A stretch of 15,890 bases of DNA from a virus (Duplodnaviria > Heunggongvirae > Uroviricota > Caudoviricetes): positions 1-15,890 of the IMG/VR virus record IMGVR_UViG_2681813004_000014; one strand, written 5' to 3'. Positions 1,316 through 14,461 of this stretch are shown here, piece by piece (the stretch's first letter is position 1; every line of letters starts with the position of its first letter). A model generated the notes under the pieces. It ran no database searches and was not told the origin of the DNA. It saw only the letters and a list, made by a program, of their open reading frames with translations. The position numbers and the translations under genes are program-made.

Positions 1316-2529
1316 TCGTCACCGCCCTTACTGTTCTTGCTGATTGTCACTTCCTGCTTCCATGCCTGGCTGAACTCGTCACCACCTTCACGCGGCGGCA
1401 TTCCCTCACGCTCACGGGCTTCGTTCGGATTGATGATCCCGTTCTTAATCCCTTTCTCATACGTGGCGTAACGTTCGGTAGGGGTGGCGCGTAATAAATC
1501 GGCTGAATCAAACTCAACCAGATAACGGGTTCCAGGCACGGGAGAAGCCACCAGCAAAGCGGCCTTGATTTGCTGTTCGAAGTTCGCCAACCAAGGACGC
1601 ATTGTCATGGTCAGAAACGCGCGGCTTGCCTCACTGAAATTGCTGTAGGTGCTGTTGCTGTATTCCTGCAAAAAAATCGGCGAGACGTTGAACATTCGGG
1701 CGATGTCTTCAATGGTAAAGCGACGGGAGGCCAGCCATTCAGCATCCTGATTACTCATGCCCAGCTGCTGATAGCTCATACCCCCTTCAAGGATGGGCGT
1801 TTTTCCGGCGTTTCTGGCCCCTTTGTAGCGTTCCAGTGCGGCTAATGCCTGTTTGCCCTTCACGCCGTCCAGCCATTCGCCTGACGTGATAACCCCTGCC
1901 GCCATCATGCCATCACGCATCACGCTCGCGCCGTGGCGTTGTTGGGCCAGCCCAAGCCCCAGCGATTCGCGGCAGATGGTTACAGGTGAGCGCCCCATAA
2001 AGCCGTCATCCGTGGAGTAACGAAGGTGGAGAACCTCCCACGGTAAATAGTTGCGGGTGTTTCCGGTGTAGGCGTCAGTGATGCAGTAGCGCCAGTTATG
2101 CTCACCTGTCTGCTCCACGTTCACCGACTGCGGCGGGTAAGGATGTAAAGCCACCGGAAAACCATCACGCCCCCACTGAATCACCGCATAAGCATTACCG
2201 TTTAACAGGCAGTGGCGGATCATCATTCGCTTAAACTGGTAGGGGGTTTGCCATGCGTTCGGGCGCTCGTTGAGGATGTGATCGACCGGATGAGAATCAA
2301 GCCACTCGCGGGCCTCCTTCCCCTTCTCATTGCGTACCAGGTACAGGTAACACGGCATGGTAGCCACCGCCTCAGAGATGACCGTCACGGCGTTCATGAC
2401 GGCGGGCAGTGATTCCGCTGTCCCCGATGATACGTACTCACCCGCCCCCGTGTTCGATGTGCCCGCCAGCGCCATAAATTCATCAAGCGTCATGCTGCGC
2501 TGCTCTTTTTTTCTTCTGAAAAGCCACAT
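1312..2529 (-). CDS. Portal protein, HK97 family (copy 1)
   Basis: 405 aa; near-identical to ORF 3552..4760 except the C-terminal tail; immediately upstream of prohead protease. Confidence 0.85.
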   Translation of the reverse strand: MWLFRRKKEQRSMTLDEFMALAGTSNTGAGEYVSSGTAESLPAVMNAVTVISEAVATMPCYLYLVRNEKGKEAREWLDSHPVDHILNERPNAWQTPYQFKRMMIRHCLLNGNAYAVIQWGRDGFPVALHPYPPQSVNVEQTGEHNWRYCITDAYTGNTRNYLPWEVLHLRYSTDDGFMGRSPVTICRESLGLGLAQQRHGASVMRDGMMAAGVITSGEWLDGVKGKQALAALERYKGARNAGKTPILEGGMSYQQLGMSNQDAEWLASRRFTIEDIARMFNVSPIFLQEYSNSTYSNFSEASRAFLTMTMRPWLANFEQQIKAALLVASPVPGTRYLVEFDSADLLRATPTERYATYEKGIKNGIINPNEAREREGMPPREGGDEFSQAWKQEVTISKNSKGGDE

Positions 2530-2530
2530 A

Positions 2531-3103
2531 TCACACCCCCGCTAAATCCACCCACCAGCGGCGATTATCCGCACGCGGCATTTTTTCGGGGTGCTGCTCA
2601 TACAGGGAACGGCGGGCCAGCTCCACGCCGGAATCGGGGTAAGCCGGTACCGATGTAACGGTAATTTCGTACAGTTCCGCCACCAGCACGGTACGAACGC
2701 ATGGATCTGTTGTGGTATCCCATACATCCTTACGGGAGCGAAAGCCAAAGCTCATGCCGGATATATCACCGCGTTTAACCAGTTCGATAACGTCGCGCCC
2801 TGTACTGGTATCCGGTGGGGTCAGTTCAAAGCGTAACCCTGTTTCGTCCTCTTCCAGTTTCAGCGTGCCGGAACGGGTGCGCCCCAGTAACATGCTGTGG
2901 TCATGCTCATACAGGCCGCGAACGTCATTACCCGCCGCAAGCCATTCAGTAAACGCCCCCCGCTGGAATTTTTCGTAAAACTCACCCCATAACAGTTCTG
3001 AAAGCTTATCCCAGCGAACAACGTAGCCCGTCAGCGTACCGGCTCCGCTCGTGGTGATTTCCGATGACCGGATTTCCATACTCTTCATAATTTTTTCACC
3101 CAT
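2531..3103 (-). CDS. Prohead protease, HK97 family (copy 1)
   Basis: 190 aa with DHSMLLGRTRSGTLKL and GMSFGF motifs; identical in protein sequence to ORF 4762..5334. Confidence 0.85.
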   Translation of the reverse strand: MGEKIMKSMEIRSSEITTSGAGTLTGYVVRWDKLSELLWGEFYEKFQRGAFTEWLAAGNDVRGLYEHDHSMLLGRTRSGTLKLEEDETGLRFELTPPDTSTGRDVIELVKRGDISGMSFGFRSRKDVWDTTTDPCVRTVLVAELYEITVTSVPAYPDSGVELARRSLYEQHPEKMPRADNRRWWVDLAGV

Positions 3104-3113
3104 AAAACACTAA

Positions 3114-3131
3114 AGGGGCTTTTAAGCCCCT
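3114..3131 (-). terminator. Hairpin 3' of the capsid-derived ORF (copy 1 of duplicated unit)
   Basis: Inverted repeat aggggct/agcccct with 4-nt loop followed on minus strand by a T-rich run; possible partial terminator or mRNA stabiliser. Confidence 0.3.
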
Positions 3132-3142
3132 TCTGTATGCTG

Positions 3143-3559
3143 TTAATCGTCGTCCTGTGGCAGTTCCAGAATCTTGATCGCGTTCGAATCCACCACGCCA
3201 CCGCCTAAATATTTCTGCGTGAAAATTTTGATGAAGCCCGGCTCTGTGATGTTGTCCGGTCTGGTGCGAACACCTGTTTCGTGATCAACAATGTAGTAAC
3301 CGCGTTTGAAGTCACCCAGGGCAATAACGTTATCAGGCATAAACTCCAGATATTCGACCGGAAGGCCCAGCAACGTATCAGGATCACCCGCCTGTAAACG
3401 GTCGCGCCAGATGTAATCACCGTTCGCGTTCTTCACCTTCTGAAGTTTTGCCGATGACGCGTTTCTTGTATACATTTTCAGAAGTTCGCCTTCTCCGGAA
3501 AAGTCATCAAGGCGAAGATGTGCCCTGACTTCATCAGGTGTAATTTTTTCTTCACTCAT
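3143..3559 (-). pseudogene. Chimeric ORF: gp6-like connector N-terminus (~35 aa) fused in frame to the last ~103 aa of the major capsid protein
   Basis: C-terminal part is identical to the end of capsid ORF 5374..6576; N-terminus MSEEKITPDEVRAHLRLDD resembles the start of connector ORF 684..980; Shine-Dalgarno-like aaggtg sits 6 nt upstream of ATG at 3559. Track ORF extends to 3640 but that region overlaps portal copy 2. Confidence 0.55.
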
Positions 3560-4760
3560 CTTTTTCACCTTTAATTTCCACCGTCTGCTTCCATGCCTGG
3601 CTGAATTCGTCGCCACCTTCACGCGGCGGCATCCCCTCACGTTCGCGGGCTTCGTTCGGATTCATGATCCCGTTCTTAATCCCTTTCTCATACGTGGCGT
3701 AACGTTCGGTAGGGGTGGCGCGTAATAAATCGGCTGAATCAAACTCAACCAGATAACGGGTACCAGGTACGGGAGAAGCCACCAGCAAAGCAGCCTTGAT
3801 TTGCTGTTCGAAGTTCGCCAGCCACGGGCGCATTGTCATGGTCAGAAACGCGCGGCTTGCCTCACTGAAATTGCTGTAGGTGCTGTTGCTGTATTCCTGC
3901 AAAAAAATCGGCGAGACGTTGAACATTCGGGCGATGTCTTCAATGGTAAAGCGACGGGAGGCCAGCCATTCAGCATCCTGATTACTCATGCCCAGCTGCT
4001 GATAGCTCATACCCCCTTCAAGGATGGGCGTTTTTCCGGCGTTTCTGGCCCCTTTGTAGCGTTCCAGTGCGGCTAATGCCTGTTTGCCCTTCACGCCGTC
4101 CAGCCATTCGCCTGACGTGATAACCCCTGCCGCCATCATGCCATCACGCATCACGCTCGCGCCGTGGCGTTGTTGGGCCAGCCCAAGCCCCAGCGATTCG
4201 CGGCAGATGGTTACAGGTGAGCGCCCCATAAAGCCGTCATCCGTGGAGTAACGAAGGTGGAGAACCTCCCACGGTAAATAGTTGCGGGTGTTTCCGGTGT
4301 AGGCGTCAGTGATGCAGTAGCGCCAGTTATGCTCACCTGTCTGCTCCACGTTCACCGACTGCGGCGGGTAAGGATGTAAAGCCACCGGAAAACCATCACG
4401 CCCCCACTGAATCACCGCATAAGCATTACCGTTTAACAGGCAGTGGCGGATCATCATTCGCTTAAACTGGTAGGGGGTTTGCCATGCGTTCGGGCGCTCG
4501 TTGAGGATGTGATCGACCGGATGAGAATCAAGCCACTCGCGGGCCTCCTTCCCCTTCTCATTGCGTACCAGGTACAGGTAACACGGCATGGTAGCCACCG
4601 CCTCAGAGATGACCGTCACGGCGTTCATGACGGCGGGCAGTGATTCCGCTGTCCCCGATGATACGTACTCACCCGCCCCCGTGTTCGATGTGCCCGCCAG
4701 CGCCATAAATTCATCAAGCGTCATGCTGCGCTGCTCTTTTTTTCTTCTGAAAAGCCACAT
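3552..4760 (-). CDS. Portal protein, HK97 family (copy 2)
   Basis: 402 aa; same as copy 1 except a different C-terminal tail (…KQTVEIKGEKDE). Confidence 0.85.
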   Translation of the reverse strand: MWLFRRKKEQRSMTLDEFMALAGTSNTGAGEYVSSGTAESLPAVMNAVTVISEAVATMPCYLYLVRNEKGKEAREWLDSHPVDHILNERPNAWQTPYQFKRMMIRHCLLNGNAYAVIQWGRDGFPVALHPYPPQSVNVEQTGEHNWRYCITDAYTGNTRNYLPWEVLHLRYSTDDGFMGRSPVTICRESLGLGLAQQRHGASVMRDGMMAAGVITSGEWLDGVKGKQALAALERYKGARNAGKTPILEGGMSYQQLGMSNQDAEWLASRRFTIEDIARMFNVSPIFLQEYSNSTYSNFSEASRAFLTMTMRPWLANFEQQIKAALLVASPVPGTRYLVEFDSADLLRATPTERYATYEKGIKNGIMNPNEAREREGMPPREGGDEFSQAWKQTVEIKGEKDE

Positions 4761-4761
4761 A

Positions 4762-5334
4762 TCACACCCCCGCTAAATCCACCCACCAGCGGCGATTATC
4801 CGCACGCGGCATTTTTTCGGGGTGCTGCTCATACAGGGAACGGCGGGCCAGCTCCACGCCGGAATCGGGGTAAGCCGGTACCGATGTAACGGTAATTTCG
4901 TACAGTTCCGCCACCAGCACGGTACGAACGCATGGATCTGTTGTGGTATCCCATACATCCTTACGGGAGCGAAAGCCAAAGCTCATGCCGGATATATCAC
5001 CGCGTTTAACCAGTTCGATAACGTCGCGCCCTGTACTGGTATCCGGTGGGGTCAGTTCAAAGCGTAACCCTGTTTCGTCCTCTTCCAGTTTCAGCGTGCC
5101 GGAACGGGTGCGCCCCAGTAACATGCTGTGGTCATGCTCATACAGGCCGCGAACGTCATTACCCGCCGCAAGCCATTCAGTAAACGCCCCCCGCTGGAAT
5201 TTTTCGTAAAACTCACCCCATAACAGTTCTGAAAGCTTATCCCAGCGAACAACGTAGCCCGTCAGCGTACCGGCTCCGCTCGTGGTGATTTCCGATGACC
5301 GGATTTCCATACTCTTCATAATTTTTTCACCCAT
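4762..5334 (-). CDS. Prohead protease, HK97 family (copy 2)
   Basis: Protein identical to copy 1. Confidence 0.85.
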   Translation of the reverse strand: MGEKIMKSMEIRSSEITTSGAGTLTGYVVRWDKLSELLWGEFYEKFQRGAFTEWLAAGNDVRGLYEHDHSMLLGRTRSGTLKLEEDETGLRFELTPPDTSTGRDVIELVKRGDISGMSFGFRSRKDVWDTTTDPCVRTVLVAELYEITVTSVPAYPDSGVELARRSLYEQHPEKMPRADNRRWWVDLAGV

Positions 5335-5344
5335 AAAACACTAA

Positions 5345-5362
5345 AGGGGCTTTTAAGCCCCT
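5345..5362 (-). terminator. Hairpin 3' of the major capsid gene (copy 2 of duplicated unit)
   Basis: Same inverted repeat as 3114..3131, offset by 2231 bp. Confidence 0.3.
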
Positions 5363-5373
5363 TCTGTATGCTG

Positions 5374-6576
5374 TTAATCGTCGTCCTGTGGCAGTTCCAG
5401 AATCTTGATCGCGTTCGAATCCACCACGCCACCGCCTAAATATTTCTGCGTGAAAATTTTGATGAAGCCCGGCTCTGTGATGTTGTCCGGTCTGGTGCGA
5501 ACACCTGTTTCGTGATCAACAATGTAGTAACCGCGTTTGAAGTCACCCAGGGCAATAACGTTATCAGGCATAAACTCCAGATATTCGACCGGAAGGCCCA
5601 GCAACGTATCAGGATCACCCGCCTGTAAACGGTCGCGCCAGATGTAATCACCGTTCGCGTTCTTCACCTTCTGAAGTTTTGCCGCCGTTGTGGAGTTAAC
5701 CACCCATACCGCGTTCTTGCGGTATTTTTTACGCAATGCAAATTTCAGGTCGATCAGCGGGTCCGCAGATGTCCACGCCAGACCGTGAGCGGGCTTGATA
5801 ACCTGCAACGTTCCGAAGTCGCGTTCTTTGTCGCTCTTCTCTGCACGGGGGACGGATAAAAAGCCTTTTGCTTTTTTGTCACCGTCGCCCACAACCAGAT
5901 CGCTTTCTTCGGTTTCCGTGAAGGTGTCGCCAATCTCGCCCGTCAGCCATGAAAGGATGTCCACATCGGAAAAATCCACGATTTCCTGTGTGGTGCGCGG
6001 GTACGCATAGACCGGATACAGCTTAATGCTCACCTCGTTAATCTTCGGGGTGCTGGTCTGTTCGCGTGCCTTACCCTCTTCACCGTGGTTAACGGTCGCA
6101 CCGCCAGCGGAAACAAGCTGCTTAAACTCGTTGCTGCTGATTTTCTTCACGGTACAGATGCGGCGCATGGTGGATTCATCCGCCAGTATTCGCATGATTT
6201 CGGTGTTCAGTTCGGGGATAACGGTATAACCACCATCAGCGGCAACGCCTGTACTTAATGCGCGGGTTTCACCTGTCAGAATGTAGTTGCGTAGTTCTGC
6301 GGGGTCAGTGGTCTGACTGCTTTTACCTGGCTTGCTGCGCTCTTCGTCTGCAATGGCTTCAAGGCGGGAAATGTCTTTATCGAGGGATTCAGCTTTAGCG
6401 CGTAATTCGTCAAATTTTGCGCCCTCAGCATCGTTAAGACTGCGGTTTTCTTTTTCCGCGTTCTCCAGCATGTCGCGCATCTGATTTTTAATGGCGGTTT
6501 TCTGCTGGCGTAATTCGATTATTCTCGGCATAAAAAAAAGTCCTGGGGTTAAGTAAGGAACTCCAGGACGCGACAA
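5374..6576 (-). CDS. Major capsid protein, HK97 family, with N-terminal coiled-coil delta domain
   Basis: 400 aa; N-terminal heptad-rich segment (IIELRQQKTAIKNQMRDMLENAEKE…) then a capsid-like body. Track start at 6576 is a TTG; an ATG at 6531 (MPRIIELRQQ) is an alternative start. Confidence 0.85.
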   Translation of the reverse strand: MSRPGVPYLTPGLFFMPRIIELRQQKTAIKNQMRDMLENAEKENRSLNDAEGAKFDELRAKAESLDKDISRLEAIADEERSKPGKSSQTTDPAELRNYILTGETRALSTGVAADGGYTVIPELNTEIMRILADESTMRRICTVKKISSNEFKQLVSAGGATVNHGEEGKAREQTSTPKINEVSIKLYPVYAYPRTTQEIVDFSDVDILSWLTGEIGDTFTETEESDLVVGDGDKKAKGFLSVPRAEKSDKERDFGTLQVIKPAHGLAWTSADPLIDLKFALRKKYRKNAVWVVNSTTAAKLQKVKNANGDYIWRDRLQAGDPDTLLGLPVEYLEFMPDNVIALGDFKRGYYIVDHETGVRTRPDNITEPGFIKIFTQKYLGGGVVDSNAIKILELPQDDD

Positions 6577-8334: not shown

Positions 8335-8550
8335 TCCCCACCACTCCCCACTTTTGCTCCCCACTTTTTAAATTCCCCACTTGCTCCCCACCTCGTTTTT
8401 TGAGTGAATGTAATGCTTTGTTTTTCATTGCGTTTTTTACTCCCCACTTTTTTGGATGTATACAGGTGGGAAAGTGGGGAATTATGTTTCAATTTTGTTA
8501 AATTCCCCACTCTCCCCACTTTTACTACCCACTTTTTACAGTGGGTAAAC
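8334..8550. repeat. Iteron array, putative replication origin
   Basis: At least 9 direct copies of (t)tccccac(tttt), inverted copies near 8463-8482, an AT-rich spacer around 8394-8440, and a palindrome tacccac…gtgggta at 8526-8546; directly 3' of the replication gene. Confidence 0.6.
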
Positions 8551-9942
8551 ATCATCCCCATCGACACAAATCACGCCGTCTTTTTCCAGCTTGGACAGCC
8601 AGCGCCGGAAGTGCTTCATCTCATACCCCAGCTTTTTCATATCGTCGCGGAGAAGGGCGATAGTGCATGGCTCTTTGTGTGCCGTCCGCGTTCTGATGCA
8701 CTGCCATAGCGCGGCGTGATTCTCCGATTTGTTGCCTGCTTCCTCGATGCGCTCCAGTTCAGCAGGGGCGCGGGGAACGTCAATCACCACCATAGACACA
8801 ATCTCTTCCCCATCGGTATCGGTAAACACCTCCACGCTTTTAAGGTCGTATGCACTCTCTTTTGGCTCCTCTGCGTCCTTCATCTTCGTACACGCCGCCA
8901 CCAGTGCTGTAACGTCTGAATTTTCCCGGCTGATTCGGTACTCTGCATCAAGCGCGGCACGGAATGCGCTGGAACCACGCGCCCCCTTTGTTTCATCCTT
9001 GCCGGAATGGTGAACCACCAGCACCGTGGCCCCTGTGGCCTGCTTTATCGCGTCACACCCCTGGATAAATGCGCCCATATCACGGGAATCATTTTCATCA
9101 TTCCCACCAAAGCAACGGGCCAGTGTGTCGATCACAATCAGCCGCACATTTTCGCCCGTTCTGCTCTTAACAAGTCCGGCAGTCCTGATAACCTGCTCCA
9201 CATAGTCAGGCGATGCAGGGAAAACAGGCGCGTTAATGATGCACAAATCTGTAACCACCTTGTCGTGGGTTATCTCCCACGCCTTAACGCGGCGTTTTAC
9301 GCCCATACTGCCTTCGCCAGCGATATAGATAACCGCGCCCTTACTCACCCTGCGGCCTCCCCATGCCATACCTGTGGCAACATGGCACGACCAGGAAATG
9401 GCGAGGAACGATTTATAAGAACCGCTGGCCCCGTAGGTGCTGCATAATGACTCAGCCGGAATAAGCCCCTTAATGACGTAGCTTTGCTGCGCGTCGAATC
9501 CCTCAGAACCCCATGAGATGGGAAGCGTGATTTTTCTCTTTCCGCCATTCATGACCAGGCTTTCCCCTCTCTCCCATGTTTCCCGTAGTCGTGGTAGCTG
9601 GTCGCTCCAGTCCTCAAGCAGTTCGAAATTTTCAGAAAGTAGCCGCGCCTCCTGGACTCCGGCGATCGCCAGTTTTGTGGCAATGGTCAGCATCTGCATA
9701 TCGTCCAGGTTTCCGGCGCGTATGACCTTTACCCTGTATCGTCCTTCATCAACAATCTGTAAGTTGTCCAGTTCGCTTAACTGATAACGGCCCAGGTAAA
9801 CCGGAGGGATGGGATCGCCTGCTTTTTTGGCCTGTGCAATCATGTAATGTTCTGCAAAGGAGTGAGCATTATCACCCGCAAAAATAACCGCCTCAGTGTG
9901 TTTATCTTTCGGTAACAGTTTTACGTTCGGTGCAAGTTTCAT
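8536..9942 (-). CDS. Replication protein with RecA/RepA-like P-loop ATPase domain (putative primase-helicase)
   Basis: 468 aa; Walker A-like YGASGSYKSF, Walker B-like RLIVIDTLARCFGGNDEND, then VLVVHHSGKD…RGSSA, as in RepA/AAA_25-type replicative ATPases. Confidence 0.75.
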   Translation of the reverse strand: MKLAPNVKLLPKDKHTEAVIFAGDNAHSFAEHYMIAQAKKAGDPIPPVYLGRYQLSELDNLQIVDEGRYRVKVIRAGNLDDMQMLTIATKLAIAGVQEARLLSENFELLEDWSDQLPRLRETWERGESLVMNGGKRKITLPISWGSEGFDAQQSYVIKGLIPAESLCSTYGASGSYKSFLAISWSCHVATGMAWGGRRVSKGAVIYIAGEGSMGVKRRVKAWEITHDKVVTDLCIINAPVFPASPDYVEQVIRTAGLVKSRTGENVRLIVIDTLARCFGGNDENDSRDMGAFIQGCDAIKQATGATVLVVHHSGKDETKGARGSSAFRAALDAEYRISRENSDVTALVAACTKMKDAEEPKESAYDLKSVEVFTDTDGEEIVSMVVIDVPRAPAELERIEEAGNKSENHAALWQCIRTRTAHKEPCTIALLRDDMKKLGYEMKHFRRWLSKLEKDGVICVDGDDVYPL

Positions 9943-10226
9943 TTCTTACCCCCTGCGACCAGCATTTCACGGATTTTGCGGATATAACTTGCAGCACGTT
10001 TCTGATTAACGGCTTTACGATGGCCCACCAGCGTGAAATCACGCCGGAACTGATAAACAGGCATAACGCAGTCATATTCGTAGCCATCACGGCGGTAAGT
10101 GATGCGCCGTTCCTCCACGCCCTTAATCATTACCGTGCCGCCGTAGTTATCACGGAAAATATCGCCGGGACGGATTTCAGGACGAGCGGGGCCGCTGGCA
10201 TTAACGCCAGAATTTTTATTTTTCAT
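9939..10226 (-). CDS. Hypothetical protein (95 aa)
   Basis: ORF in the early operon with 4-bp overlap to the replication gene; no recognised motif. Confidence 0.5.
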   Translation of the reverse strand: MKNKNSGVNASGPARPEIRPGDIFRDNYGGTVMIKGVEERRITYRRDGYEYDCVMPVYQFRRDFTLVGHRKAVNQKRAASYIRKIREMLVAGGKK

Positions 10227-11021: not shown

Positions 11022-11379
11022 GGCGCACCCCCTGAATAACCTGATATCCGCAACTGGTCAGCAATTCGATAAATTCCGGCAGTGTGCCGAAACAGCAATC
11101 ATCACGCAGCCGTTCGCAGGATACCTCGACGCCGTTTTCGTAGTGACTCACCATACATCCGGTAAAATGCAGATCATCATCGTGATGGCTCGTTGACGGT
11201 TTCATCAGTCGCGCACGTTCCGCCAGTTCAAGCAATGCTTCAACGCTTCCGGCAATTGCACCATCCGGCAGGTGATAATTACTTACTACGCGTCCATTCT
11301 CTACATTGACGAGTAGCTGTCCGGTAAATTTCTCACGAAACTGAACGCGGTTAAGATCGGTAAGTGACAGGTTAATCAT
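11011..11379 (-). CDS. Hypothetical protein (~122 aa)
   Basis: Internal ATG at 11379 (MINLSLTDLNRVQ…) is preceded by aggggg at about 7 nt; track ORF extends to 11496 but overlaps the upstream gene. Confidence 0.5.
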   Translation of the reverse strand: MINLSLTDLNRVQFREKFTGQLLVNVENGRVVSNYHLPDGAIAGSVEALLELAERARLMKPSTSHHDDDLHFTGCMVSHYENGVEVSCERLRDDCCFGTLPEFIELLTSCGYQVIQGVRHVQ

Positions 11380-11568
11380 GGTACACCCCCTGACGAATAC
11401 GGGCAGCGAATACAGCGACACAACCGGACGGGCAACGGTTACGCGCTTCGCGTTCTGTCCAGGCGGTGACGTGGATGATTTGGGATTCTCCGGCACTCAG
11501 TGCCAGAAAACGCCACACAAAGGCCGTTTGTGTGTGCGCTAGGCGTGGGGTATGCTGTTTTACAGCCA
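11372..11568 (-). CDS. Hypothetical small protein (~65 aa), first gene of the early operon
   Basis: ATG at 11568 with agaggt 7 nt upstream; MAVKQHTPRLAHTQTAFVWRFLAL…; the long track ORF 11372..12199 is rejected. Any resemblance to Icd-like small proteins is unverified. Confidence 0.4.
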
Positions 11569-11768
11569 TAATCGTTACCTCTTTTAACGGTTTGGTTAGA
11601 CGCCCCGTTACTGCTCCAACAGTACGGGGCTTCGTCGTTTCAATTGCTGAATTGCATATATCAGCCCTTGTGGTATTCAGATTACATTTAGGTGAATACC
11701 ATTTCAAGTCTTTTTTGGTATTCACTTTTGTATTACACTGCATCCCGTTATTAATCGGAGGTGCAAAT
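11569..11768. promoter_or_regulatory. Divergent promoter/operator region between the early operon and the RHH gene
   Basis: Half-site GGTATTCA at 11672-11679, its inverted copy at 11693-11700 (13 bp spacer) and a third copy at 11717-11724; imperfect hairpin at 11602-11630. Confidence 0.5.
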
Positions 11769-12074
11769 ATGTCCACGAGTTCTGTTAACAATAAGTCACA
11801 GCAACTGAATGCCAGATTTCCACATGAAGTAGTGAGTGGCATTGAGGCATCCCTACAGCCAGGGGAAACTAAAGCGAATTTTATAGTTACGGCTGTACGC
11901 GGTGAGATCGCCCGCCGCCAAGCAGAAGGAAGAAGAGAAAATCCCCTGGTTTCTTCGCTCGATGCACTGGCGCAGGTGGAAAAAATCGGTGTCAAAGCTG
12001 CCGAGGAGATCGGGCAACTCGTCGCCGTTGCGCGTGAAGAACTCCAGCGGCGCAAAGCCAAAGAACAGGAATAG
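11769..12074 (+). CDS. Ribbon-helix-helix-like DNA-binding protein (candidate island repressor)
   Basis: ggagg 8 nt upstream of ATG 11769; N-terminal region (…ARFPHEVVSGIEASL…FIVTAVRGEIARRQ) resembles Arc/CopG-type RHH; the only plus-strand island gene, divergent from the early operon. Confidence 0.55.
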   Translation: MSTSSVNNKSQQLNARFPHEVVSGIEASLQPGETKANFIVTAVRGEIARRQAEGRRENPLVSSLDALAQVEKIGVKAAEEIGQLVAVAREELQRRKAKEQE

Positions 12075-12162
12075 CCCACCAGCAAGCCAGCACACTGATC
12101 ACATTGCCCACCAGCCAGCAAACCGCTATGATGGCCGGGCTTATGTTTAGTGTTTTCCCATT

Positions 12163-12190
12163 GGCGACCGCCCCCGGTCGCCTTTGTTTT
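12163..12190 (+). terminator. Rho-independent terminator
   Basis: GC-rich hairpin ggcgaccg-cccc-cggtcgcc followed by tttgtttt, downstream of the RHH gene. Confidence 0.6.
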
Positions 12191-12209
12191 ATGTGCCATA
12201 TACTCCCCT

Positions 12210-12434
12210 TTACGCTGCCTTGCCTGAATTAATGCGATCCCGGCTTTTAACCCATTCCATAACCTCGGACAGCAGCCAACCTACAGAACGACCGCCCAGA
12301 TTAAGGCGTGACGGAAATCGCCCTTTTTTCTCCAGTTCGTAGCGTGTAGTGCGACACACTCCAGTTAACTTACGACATTCATCCTCACGGATTACGCGAT
12401 CTGATAGTGATTGAAATTGTGTATTTTGATTCAT
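12210..12434 (-). CDS. alpA: AlpA-family transcriptional regulator
   Basis: 74 aa; …CRKLTGVCRTTRYELEKKGRFPSRLNLGGRSVGWLLSEVMEWV matches the AlpA HTH pattern of CP4-57-type islands. Confidence 0.85.
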   Translation of the reverse strand: MNQNTQFQSLSDRVIREDECRKLTGVCRTTRYELEKKGRFPSRLNLGGRSVGWLLSEVMEWVKSRDRINSGKAA

Positions 12435-12528
12435 AAAAAACGTCCTCGAACGTTGCCGAACGAGGACGATTCTAGACGGTGGTAAAACGCCGTTTGTGTG
12501 ATATCACATTATCGGTACGTGATATCAC
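12435..12528 (-). promoter_or_regulatory. alpA leader hairpin plus two palindromic operator-like sites
   Basis: Hairpin 12441-12468 (cgtcctcg…cgaggacg) followed on the minus strand by TTTTTT and the alpA ATG; the right arm contains the only GAGGA upstream of alpA. Palindrome GTGATATCAC occurs at 12498-12507 and 12519-12528, centres 21 bp apart. Confidence 0.45.
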
Positions 12529-13244
12529 TTTTTGCGTTTTTGTTGAGATTCACGCCCCAAATACTTTTGCCATGTCTGCCAATGTGTTTTGGGAAATTCT
12601 ATCCCTCTGGATGCAGCTATAGAATCAATTAAATCTGCTATTTTAGGTAATGATTCCGTGTCTAGGTCTACATCACCCATTTCTGGAATAAGTTTAATTA
12701 AAGAGTAAATAACCTCATTCCTTTTTGCTGCTCTTTTGGGGTTATCTTCTGTAAGATTACGAAAACTACCTTCATCTTTTACATTATTTAAATCATCTGC
12801 CATCACACATAAATAATCAACATCTATATCAAATGGCTTGAGATTTTCCCCTTCTGGAGTTATTTCTAATCCACCGCCAAGTCTATCAGGGTAAAAATAT
12901 AATGTTGGTGAGCTTATGATGTTATTATGTTTAAACTCAATATCAGAGAACGCCTTTTTGTTTACATAGAAAAAACCAGCAATAAAATTTGCTATATATA
13001 ATCTATCATCTATTTCCTTCTCTAAATTAATTGTTTTGCCGTCCTGGAATATTAGTCCATTCCGTTTATTATCTTTAAATCCCTCAAGAAAATAAACCTC
13101 ACAGTTCCCAACACTATGCTCAGGAATAAATACAGAAATATCAATGGCACCTGTACTAGCGAAATGATAGAGATCCCTTATTGTACATCCTAACTTTTCT
13201 GCCGCTTCAGGTAACGGATAATAGAGTCTTTTAGGTAATTTCAT
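12525..13244 (-). CDS. Low-GC cargo protein of unknown function, possible N-terminal HTH
   Basis: 239 aa; markedly AT-rich compared with flanking int and alpA; N-terminus LPEAAEKLGCTIRDLYHFASTGAI resembles excisionase/MerR-type HTH; 4-bp overlap with int stop. Confidence 0.7.
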   Translation of the reverse strand: MKLPKRLYYPLPEAAEKLGCTIRDLYHFASTGAIDISVFIPEHSVGNCEVYFLEGFKDNKRNGLIFQDGKTINLEKEIDDRLYIANFIAGFFYVNKKAFSDIEFKHNNIISSPTLYFYPDRLGGGLEITPEGENLKPFDIDVDYLCVMADDLNNVKDEGSFRNLTEDNPKRAAKRNEVIYSLIKLIPEMGDVDLDTESLPKIADLIDSIAASRGIEFPKTHWQTWQKYLGRESQQKRKK

Positions 13245-14461
13245 TTAGCCACCTTCAGCATAACAATATTTTCATGATTTCCAGCCAGCACATCAAGACG
13301 CTCAACCCACAGATTCAACGCGTCCCGCTTTGCCTGTAAATAGCGTGAATGGTTATAGGTTTTTTGCTGACCGGGCATCTGATGCGCTGTGATGTGCTCC
13401 ACGATATGCGGATCGACACCTAAATCGTTCAGCATCGTTGTAAACGTGTGGCGAAAGTCATGCAGCGTCCAGTGTTCCTGGTTAAGCCGCTTATGCGCAT
13501 TTCGCCCATATTGCGCTACCGTGGTATCTTTTTTCAGTTCTCCGAGTAATAACCCTGTATGCCGGTTCTTCTCCACCAGCTTCTGAATGAACGGCAAAAT
13601 GCCATCGGGGATTGGCCTGAATATCGTTACCTTCGTTTTGCTATGCTCTTTTGGCACTGTCCACAACATTTCTTTCAGATCCCATTCTTTGATCTCTGAA
13701 AGTCTGACCTCTGCCGTTCTGCACCCGAACACAATCAGCAAGCGCATTAACGCGCTGTAGTAAGGCGCGAACACATCACCATCGATAGCGCGTAAAATTT
13801 CCTTTAATTCGCTGTTACTGTGCACCCTCTCGCGAATTTCTGCTCTCTTACCCACATCGCTGACGATCAAATCGTCCAGGGCATTACTGAACGCGTAGCG
13901 CCTCCTGCGGCAGAACTTTAGCGCCTGTTTGCAGGTTTGCATGACGTGCCCTGCTGCTACTGGTGCTTTTTTTCGTACACGGTCAAAACATGCGATCCAC
14001 TGCCTTGTATCGCATTTATCAAGAGGAATTGCCCCTATATGGCAAATGATGTGCTTATCCATACGTTGCACCAGCTTTATGTAGTCTTTGCGGTTACCCT
14101 TCGCATATTCATCCAGCCAGTAGTTAATCGCCTCCTTCACCGTAACGGGTTTTAGCGCTTCCTGTACTGTGGCGCACAACTCATAACGGGGGTTTTTACC
14201 CTCAGCCAGCCATGCCCGGCACTGTGCGCGTTTTTCCCTTGCAGCTTTCAGCGACAATTCAGGGTAAGCCCCCAGCTTTAACCGCTCTGCGGCAACCTCA
14301 CGGCCTCCCGTTCGGTACCGGAAATACCAGGTTAATTTGCCGCCCTTTGAGTGTTTAATCTCCAGCCCGCCCCCGTCGGAGTAAAAACGCTCTTTTTCTG
14401 CCTGGACAGCCGCCAATTTTTTTAACGTCGAATCGCTCAGTTTGTTTAGTGCTTTTCCCAC
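13241..14461 (-). CDS. int: Tyrosine integrase, P4-like
   Basis: 406 aa with catalytic-region pattern …LHDFRHTFTTMLNDLGVDPHIVEHITAHQ…YNHSRY; located at the island edge. Confidence 0.9.
   Translation of the reverse strand: MGKALNKLSDSTLKKLAAVQAEKERFYSDGGGLEIKHSKGGKLTWYFRYRTGGREVAAERLKLGAYPELSLKAAREKRAQCRAWLAEGKNPRYELCATVQEALKPVTVKEAINYWLDEYAKGNRKDYIKLVQRMDKHIICHIGAIPLDKCDTRQWIACFDRVRKKAPVAAGHVMQTCKQALKFCRRRRYAFSNALDDLIVSDVGKRAEIRERVHSNSELKEILRAIDGDVFAPYYSALMRLLIVFGCRTAEVRLSEIKEWDLKEMLWTVPKEHSKTKVTIFRPIPDGILPFIQKLVEKNRHTGLLLGELKKDTTVAQYGRNAHKRLNQEHWTLHDFRHTFTTMLNDLGVDPHIVEHITAHQMPGQQKTYNHSRYLQAKRDALNLWVERLDVLAGNHENIVMLKVAK

Follow-up and report, generated by a model that had tools for sequence, protein, structure and literature searches.

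The 199-bp intergenic region at positions 11570-11768 of IMG/VR record IMGVR_UViG_2681813004_000014 (the window, a 15,890-bp stretch) separates two divergent genes, with the ATG of an Icd-like gene at 11569 on the minus strand and that of a YlcI/YnfO-family gene at 11769 on the plus strand. The best match to the 1.2 kb around this region was in SM107, where it lies in a 15-kb island between rcnR and thiM. The same 1.2-kb query found a partial match in 1,375 of 5,426 complete E. coli genomes, and matched over at least 80% of its length in 25. The near-identical SM107 island encodes an integrase, a hypothetical gene, a helix-turn-helix (HTH) protein of the AlpA type, an opposed YlcI/YnfO gene, an Icd-like gene and small unknown genes, followed by DUF4222, replicase, SSB, PerC, capsid, prohead protease, portal, connectors, HNH and terminases; its annotation contains no tail genes. 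Under the published definition of phage-inducible chromosomal islands that form capsids (cf-PICIs; 10.1101/2022.09.08.507074), the annotated integrase, alpA and replicase, combined with an island's own capsid, protease, portal, connectors, HNH and terminases without a tail, are those of a cf-PICI, and Pfam found the integrase, alpA and helicase in the window itself. Judged by gene content, the window is an E. coli cf-PICI, a phage satellite, and 11570-11768 is its predicted early-gene control region.

The Icd-like gene (11372-11569, minus strand; NF033153, 64.4 bits) is the first of the early/replication operon, and is followed by unknown genes, DUF4222 (9939-10226, minus strand) and an AAA_25 helicase (8536-9942, minus strand) that PHROGs tie to primase-helicases. 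The YlcI/YnfO-family gene (11769-12074, plus strand) encodes a 101-residue candidate repressor with a predicted N-terminal ribbon-helix-helix (RHH) domain at about residues 10-54 and a C-terminal helix at 59-100, and we refer to it as the RHH gene. It is the only gene annotated on its strand in the SM107 island, and ends in an intrinsic terminator (GGCGACCGCCCCCGGTCGCC then TTTGTTTT; 12163-12182, plus strand) with a T-run on the plus strand only. It converges with alpA (12210-12434, minus strand; PF05930, E = 2e-16), which shares the early operon's strand and belongs to the known PICI activator family. In Gram-negative PICIs, AlpA is an auto-activating activator that is switched on by the helper phage; transcription in these islands has been described as unidirectional, no repressor has been identified, and their difference from Gram-positive PICIs has been called a mystery (PMC6092414). 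In cf-PICIs, what lies downstream of alpA has been reported as a variable gene of unknown function (10.1101/2025.02.11.637232).

An earlier note on this DNA had described an inverted pair of half-sites with a 13-bp spacer and a third, direct copy in the intergenic region, and both the coordinates and the exact counts agreed with this. The 9-mer TGGTATTCA and the shorter word GGTATTCA have exactly three copies in the window, all within 54 bp: 11671-11679 (plus strand), 11693-11701 (minus strand) and 11716-11724 (plus strand). Copies one and two make up a perfect inverted repeat whose arms are 13 nt apart; the third, in direct orientation, lies 45 bp from the first. The whole-window expectation for the repeat word was 0.41, and three copies were reached in 2 of 200 shuffles. 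When the 199-bp intergenic region was dinucleotide-shuffled, any 9-mer reached three copies in 82 of 20,000 shuffles (0.4%), most of which we presumed, without inspection, to be low-complexity runs.

The layout of three half-sites was replaced, on comparison with related islands, by a periodic array of four to six predicted operators spaced at about 22-23 bp. Sites 1 (TGGTATTCAG, 11671-11680, plus strand), 2 (GTGAATACCA, reverse complement TGGTATTCAC, 11692-11701, minus strand) and 3 (TGGTATTCAC, 11716-11725, plus strand) are exact copies, and the position of site 1, -98/-99 from the ATG of the RHH gene, holds class-specific words in all of the classes described below. Site 4 (CTGCATCCCG, 11738-11747, minus strand) is degenerate, with 6/10 matches to GTGAATACCA. 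Its position is occupied by strong sites in sister islands (CTGAATACCA in locus L028, GTGAATCTCA in L010), and by exact copies in classes QISI, LTTV, MTTI and KLQA. A possible weak site 0 (CTGAATTGCA, 11647-11656, minus strand; 7/10 matches) lies one period to the left of site 1, and loci L010, L045, L072 and L032 likewise have sites at this position (about -121). A one-mismatch operator word (TGGCATTCA) was also observed at 11806-11814 on the minus strand, within RHH gene codons 13-15 that encode the protein's own putative DNA-reading strand. Lying 90 bp from site 3, this copy keeps to the phase of the 22.5-bp array and may be an extra site or chance. Like sites 4 and 0, it occupies a position that carries a strong site in sister islands.

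A generic promoter scan detected nothing in the window's intergenic region. We therefore report promoters from a position-weight scan across 44 distinct regions, which predicted back-to-back promoters, in support of the divergent layout proposed earlier. The predicted sigma-70 promoter of the early operon (11679-11707, minus strand) has a -35 TTGAAA at 11707-11702, a 17-nt spacer and a -10 TAATCT at 11684-11679, placing the predicted transcript start near 11672. The best leftward promoter was at the same place in 44/44 regions (-35 at -61 to -70, -10 at -82 to -94), with -35 variants TTGACA, TTGACC, TTGAAA and similar lying between sites 2 and 3, and the -10 between sites 1 and 2. For the RHH gene, a weak promoter is predicted at 11711-11739 on the plus strand, with a -10 TACACT at 11734-11739 and a poor -35 in a T-run (11711-11716). 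A rightward -10 (TATACT, TATAAT, TATATT or TACACT) was present at -38 to -30, just upstream of site 4, in 37/44 regions. At the early promoter, site 1 overlaps the -10 edge as well as the predicted start, and site 2 falls within the -35/-10 spacer. Site 3 is just upstream of the early -35 and, at the RHH gene's promoter, in the spacer/-35 region; there, site 4 overlaps both the -10, at its 3' end, and the predicted start. Both promoters thus carry a site in the spacer region and another over the start, an arrangement that suits repression and auto-repression, not activation.

We compared 90 related loci, 10 from one-genome-per-species contigs and 80 from IMG/VR. These contained ten variants of four beta-strand residues of the RHH protein, each with its own repeat word, and the class words were always at about -121, -99, -77, -54 and -31 from the ATG. 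The words are TGGTATTCA for class QLNA, TGGGATTCA / TGGTATTCAC for QINA, TGTGATTCAG for QISI, GTGTGTTTCA for LTTV, GTGA(G/T)ATACA for MTTI, CTGGATTCCAG for KLQA, TGTAAGAC / GTCTTACA for SLTA, GGTGT(A/G)TA.. for MKNI and AGGTGTG(C/T)AT for I/VKNV. Site mismatch was 2-3% within a class and 50-55% between classes (2.4% and 53%, respectively, for operator site 2), and classes with the same residues 12 and 14 have related words, as in QLNA (TGGTATTCA) and QINA (TGGGATTCA). The reference PICI of E. coli 042, EcCIO42 (locus L092, 8692-9462), carries the same switch with the same operator class.

The operators and the N-terminal codons are adjacent, and we therefore searched for other features that travel with the words; none was found among AlpA, the Icd-like protein, the replicase and the C-terminus of the RHH protein. 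AlpA clusters were fully mixed over the classes, QLNA occurring with six AlpA clusters and AlpA cluster A1 with four classes. Icd-like alleles within class QLNA ranged from 45 to 100% identity, and the window (AAA_25) and SM107 (DUF927) have different replicase families and identical repeats. Sliding identity against loci L066, L048 and L045 fell to 30-77% only from about -140 to +115 of the ATG, and both flanks, including the C-terminal part of the protein and alpA, were 80-100% identical across the class change. This delimits a predicted specificity cassette at 11629-11884, comprising the operators and the first ~38 codons, which islands appear to exchange as a whole. For E. coli compared with Xenorhabdus/Photorhabdus loci of the same class, sites were 93.5% identical compared with 65.2% for other positions (p = 4e-14), and this conservation of sites over drifting spacers was repeated in two other classes. 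As the sites are kept across genera while neighbouring bases drift, selection appears to act on the words themselves and not just through shared descent. In these comparisons the repeat word was shown to change with the beta-strand of the protein and with none of the other features examined. That the repeats are operators of the YlcI/YnfO RHH protein is thus well supported computationally. The earlier suggestion that this protein binds here as a repressor draws support from the class-specific words, the site conservation and the promoter overlap; this support does not extend to the further possibility, raised there, that it is the master repressor of the island.

Two loci (L076 and L070, at ~3000-4300) contain two complete switch modules in tandem. 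The extra module encodes a 59-residue RHH-only paralogue of class KLQA, with operators (CTGGATTCCAG) and a leader hairpin of its own, and sits 740 bp upstream of the 101-residue class QISI gene.

The RHH protein matched NF041551 (YlcI_YnfO_N, a 42-residue N-terminal model) at residues 9-50 with 60.3 bits against a cutoff of 30, and its orthologues are labelled YlcI/YnfO family in RefSeq. No Pfam family reached gathering score for this protein, and neither Pfam nor hhalign to Arc and Mnt placed it in a curated RHH sequence family; in PHROGs it is listed as unknown function. PF07704, which we take to be an RHH-clan family, matched 17/28 family members weakly (best E = 0.0011). The AlphaFold2 monomer model (pLDDT, a per-residue confidence score, 81.7) has coil at residues 10-18, helices at 19-28 and 35-54, and a long helix at 59-100. 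This is the beta-strand/helix/helix topology over ~45 residues of the RHH (MetJ/Arc/CopG) superfamily, with the strand region modelled as coil, as expected for a monomer, the only form predicted. Members of this superfamily dimerise, place a two-stranded antiparallel sheet in the DNA major groove and bind runs of short repeated subsites at their own or an adjacent promoter. Alignment with hhalign to Arc and Mnt gave E = 0.005 and 0.046 at a probability of 1-7%. The profile alignment is weak and in register, setting Q12, N14 and R16 onto Arc Q9, N11 and R13, the base-contacting residues of Arc; the protein also aligns with Mnt 8-20, in a short alignment of strand and helix A. Taken together, the model and these alignments support an RHH fold for the N-terminal domain. 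In an alignment of 28 homologues the C-terminal two thirds were conserved, and the K-S-Q-xxxx-R-x-P-H-[DE] stretch and the next helix were hypervariable. Residues 59-100 (window 11943-12068), with a nearly invariant I73-G74, showed a weak likeness to the Hef helix-hairpin-helix (1x2i, E = 0.016); AlphaFold2 models them as a single continuous helix, unlike a helix-hairpin-helix. Searching the literature returned no work on the function of YlcI or YnfO, and likewise nothing relevant on RHH proteins in PICIs.

The imperfect hairpin reported in the earlier note was located, with arms at 11599-11608 and 11624-11633. It is a terminator-like stem-loop (SL2, 11599-11633, plus strand) followed by TTCGTCGTTTC, and the evidence points to constraint as a plus-strand RNA structure, not to a part in the operator. 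SL2 was present in all loci with 94.5% of cells paired and compensatory changes in 9/14 pairs. None of 500 shuffles had pairing as high, and no slid register came close. The wobble cells comprised 37 G·T and 1 A·C, and therefore the hairpin is constrained as plus-strand RNA, opposite the early mRNA. Directly upstream lies a second stem-loop, SL1 (11564-11597, plus strand), with an anti-Shine-Dalgarno CCUC in its loop that is the complement of the Icd-like Shine-Dalgarno sequence in the window and its sequence family. RNAalifold on a MAFFT alignment gave SL2 only, with SL1 misaligned across sequence families, and for this reason we compared per-sequence folds and plus- versus minus-strand energies instead. 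The two-hairpin fold was found in 43/43 distinct sequences, and the plus strand was more stable than the minus strand for SL1 in 43/43 (mean 6.3 kcal/mol) and for SL2 in 36/43.

An antisense-RNA promoter is predicted at 11528-11556 on the plus strand, within Icd-like codons 5-14, with a -35 TTGTGT at 11528-11533, a 17-nt spacer and a -10 TATGCT at 11551-11556. A TAnnnT was present 42-44 nt upstream of a conserved GGTTAGA motif in 43/43 distinct sequences, across unrelated first-gene families, and the -10 was often extended (TGGTATGAT) or TATAAT. The predicted transcript (11563-11643, plus strand) has two stem-loops and a U-rich tail and is complementary to the Icd-like leader, ribosome-binding site and first codons. 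The simplest reading of 11563-~11643 is thus a cis-antisense RNA of ~80 nt that spans the first early gene's leader, ribosome-binding site and start codon, and SL2 is most likely its terminator. The SL2 stem is strongly supported on the plus strand; its tail (UUCGUCGUUUC) is U-rich but interrupted, and failed a simple terminator scan. Rfam at gathering thresholds found no known RNA family anywhere in the window; over 11300-12500, with the limit relaxed to E <= 10, it gave no C4 and no isrK, only sub-threshold minus-strand R1162-like and RsaJ matches. A literature search on antisense RNAs to Icd-like genes returned nothing relevant. A C4/CI-type immunity RNA was rejected, as there was no Rfam match; C4/isrK-type immunity RNAs have been described in some Gram-negative PICIs in a survey of their organisation that mentions no RHH gene (PMC10111431).

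We propose, with a probability of roughly 60%, that an RHH repressor acting at periodic operators shuts off the early operon, that an antisense RNA provides a second layer, and that AlpA-dependent events override both. RHH dimers would each read one 9-10-bp word via beta-strand residues 12, 14 and 16, and dimers two helical turns apart would cooperate, perhaps via the long C-terminal helix. Occupancy of sites 1 and 2 would occlude the -10 and start of the early promoter and keep the Icd-like/replication operon off, and sites 3 and 4 would auto-regulate the repressor's own weak promoter, site 4 having decayed in this island. The ~80-nt plus-strand RNA, beginning in the Icd-like gene and ending at SL2, would pair with the leader, Shine-Dalgarno sequence and AUG of early transcripts that escape repression. 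More speculatively, induction would begin when the helper phage turns on AlpA. Transcripts that AlpA drives on the strand of the early operon would then cross the repressor gene in antisense, continue into the early operon and override the switch. Because alpA and any cargo converge on the RHH gene and the terminator between them is one-directional, such AlpA-driven read-through could occur.

Several points weigh against this proposal. The early -10 (TAATCT) and the -35 of the repressor promoter are weak in the window, and site 4 is degenerate. The operators and N-terminal codons are contiguous, and their covariation could partly reflect linkage in one cassette. Foldseek with the full-length model and the PDB sequence profile were uninformative. 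For the antisense RNA, the -10 overlaps conserved His-Thr codons and may be conserved for coding, the U-tract after SL2 is broken by other bases, and the promoter could instead feed a long leader of the RHH gene with the hairpin as an attenuator. Finally, alpA is necessary for the induction of Gram-negative PICIs and cf-PICIs and its overexpression induces them (PMC6092414; 10.1101/2022.09.08.507074; 10.1101/2025.02.11.637232), among them EcCICFT073 and EcCIEDL933, which may lack the switch module; these results can be explained without a repressor. The conserved half of the RHH gene was found in one O157:H7 genome among the best 60 of 151 matching genomes.

The earlier note had raised the possibility of a master repressor with a helper-phage inducer. 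In such a scheme the RHH protein alone, like Stl of Staphylococcus aureus pathogenicity islands (SaPIs), would silence the island until a helper-phage anti-repressor binds and inactivates it. A divergent repressor/early-operon layout with operators over the early promoter is what this predicts, the hypervariable specificity cassettes resemble immunity regions, and the place is vacant, none being known yet for Gram-negative PICIs (PMC6092414). However, alpA is required for induction of related elements, including cf-PICIs (10.1101/2022.09.08.507074), and its overexpression induces them (PMC6092414) and has been used to make cf-PICI particles (10.1101/2025.02.11.637232), and the conserved C-terminal part of the protein is predicted to form one helix and shows no evident sensor domain. 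Given the published AlpA requirement, a master repressor of this kind is possible but not the most economical explanation, and we consider it unlikely; a maintenance repressor with an antisense RNA, overridden by AlpA-dependent events, is favoured. The hairpin could alternatively act in the early mRNA, as a minus-strand leader element serving as a stabiliser, a processing site or a target of a P4/P1-type immunity RNA. It does fall within the 5' leader predicted for the early mRNA, 30 nt ahead of the Icd-like AUG, and its minus strand weakly resembles the leader of R1162 (22.8 bits, where the model's gathering score is 55), and both P1 Icd genes and P4 leaders are RNA-controlled (see also PMC10111431). 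On that strand, however, the 37 G·T cells become A·C mismatches, compared with one A·C cell on the plus strand, the greater plus-strand stability of both SL2 (36/43) and SL1 (43/43) goes unexplained, no U-run follows, and C4 and isrK were not matched even at E <= 10, which makes this role distinctly improbable.

Two further explanations take the repeats away from the RHH protein, and both were rejected, as was a chance origin. AlpA might activate the early promoter from them, since it activates downstream PICI genes (PMC6092414) and alpA is just 440 bp away. Against this, the same repeats occur with six AlpA clusters of less than 85% mutual identity and one cluster with four repeat classes, alpA has its own upstream repeats (here two copies of GTGATATCAC, absent from the switch), and sites in a promoter spacer and over a start fit repression, not activation; AlpA sites are accordingly very improbable. 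Still harder to credit are replication-origin iterons for the island replicase. Periodic, class-specific repeats beside AT-rich spacers do look iteron-like, but the AAA_25 helicase-type window shares identical repeats with the DUF927 replicase island of SM107, loci L057 and L066 are both of class QISI though L057 has a D5-type primase, and the origins reported for PICIs are located 3' of the replicase gene (PMC6092414).

As a kind of system, the proposed RHH repressor/operator switch with antisense RNA appears nearest in logic to P22 immI and the CopG/RNAII control of pMV158, by analogy and with no detectable homology. In P22 immI, the RHH repressors Mnt and Arc act at the divergent promoters Pmnt and Pant, together with the sar antisense RNA. 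The predicted switch is similar in having an RHH repressor by a divergent promoter pair, operators over the silenced promoter and a short cis-antisense RNA over the ribosome-binding site of the repressed operon's first gene, and its protein is similar to Mnt in combining an N-terminal RHH domain with a C-terminal helical extension. In contrast to P22, there is no significant homology (hhalign probability <10%), the sites are ~22 bp apart and bracket the -10 where P22 has one compact 17-21-bp operator, the operon begins with Icd-like and replication genes and not with an antirepressor, and one RHH protein takes the place of two. On plasmid pMV158, the RHH repressor CopG and the antisense RNAII govern copy number. 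Replication genes would here, too, be under an RHH repressor and a counter-transcript blocking translation initiation, but copG is co-transcribed with repB whereas the RHH gene is divergent, CopG has 45 residues and no C-terminal helix, and pMV158 is a plasmid and not an integrated phage satellite.

Similarities to satellite and phage immunity systems were also apparent. Stl of SaPIs and Rpr of Gram-positive PICIs are likewise divergent from the early (xis/replication) operon of the satellite and have highly variable alleles. Stl and Rpr are HTH proteins, encoded on the int side of their divergent pair and co-oriented with int. The RHH protein differs in its predicted fold and is encoded by the sole gene opposed to int and alpA: the integrase (13241-14461; Pfam), a 239-residue open reading frame (orf239, 12525-13244) and alpA all read from the minus strand and converge with the plus-strand RHH gene. 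Repression by Stl and Rpr has been proven to be lifted by helper-phage proteins (PMC6092414). As in lambdoid immunity, the DNA-reading part of the repressor and its operators seem to be swapped as a cassette that defines immunity classes; the differences are an RHH in place of an HTH protein, a much smaller cassette of ~250 bp, and the lack of a Cro-like partner and of an SOS-cleavable domain. The P4 CI and P1 c4 RNAs are comparable in exerting RNA-level control of a satellite or phage operon that can begin with an icd-type gene, but are same-strand RNAs processed from a leader, unlike the true cis-antisense transcript predicted here, and the window has no C4 or isrK match.

The proposed switch would be built from an uncharacterised protein family, in a satellite class that has no repressor on record. 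It would give the gene that follows alpA a definite role that can be tested cheaply, with operators, promoters, specificity residues and an antisense RNA all predicted. If correct, this would be the first function for the YlcI/YnfO family, including two E. coli K-12 y-genes, would explain the silence of these satellites, and would provide a set of small orthogonal repressor/operator pairs. We tentatively extend the proposal, while thinking the extension doubtful as a whole, to Gram-negative PICIs at large, both classical (for example EcCIO42) and capsid-forming. These might carry an unrecognised immunity module consisting of a YlcI/YnfO RHH repressor, a swappable cassette with at least ten specificity classes, and a cis-antisense RNA. 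AlpA would then act by transcription through the repressor gene (by collision or antisense) into the early operon, and not by binding the early promoter, and the classes would hold several islands per cell off independently.

Additional observations were made on the neighbouring genes. The Icd-like protein matched phrog_1743 and phrog_6196, both labelled 'transcriptional repressor' in PHROGs; were this label correct, the divergent genes could form a switch of two regulators and not a repressor with a cell-division inhibitor. Inside the Icd-like coding region, on the early-operon strand, is a terminator-like hairpin (CACACAAACGGCCTTTGTGTG then GCGTTTTCTG; 11514-11534, minus strand) with a stem that overlaps the -35 of the predicted antisense RNA (11528-11533); the other Icd-like family has CCCGCCCTTGCGGG there. 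Upstream of alpA, the perfect palindrome GTGATATCAC occurs at 12498-12507 and 12519-12528 (0.31 expected), and other AlpA alleles have their own allele-specific upstream repeats. The minus-strand leader of alpA (12435-12528) also contains a strong hairpin, CGTCCTCG...GCAA...CGAGGACG (12441-12468) then T6, that abuts the alpA ATG and buries its only Shine-Dalgarno-like GAGGA. This looks like a terminator or attenuator before the activator gene.

A 2,231-bp tandem duplication (window 1343-3640 and 3574-5900) covers the portal, the prohead protease and part of the capsid gene. Its reported 300-nt repeat copies are 94% identical, and it is absent from the otherwise near-identical SM107 island; it could be a recombinant of two islands or an assembly artefact. 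In EcCIO42, a second small plus-strand open reading frame follows the RHH gene, although the literature describes Gram-negative PICIs as unidirectionally transcribed.

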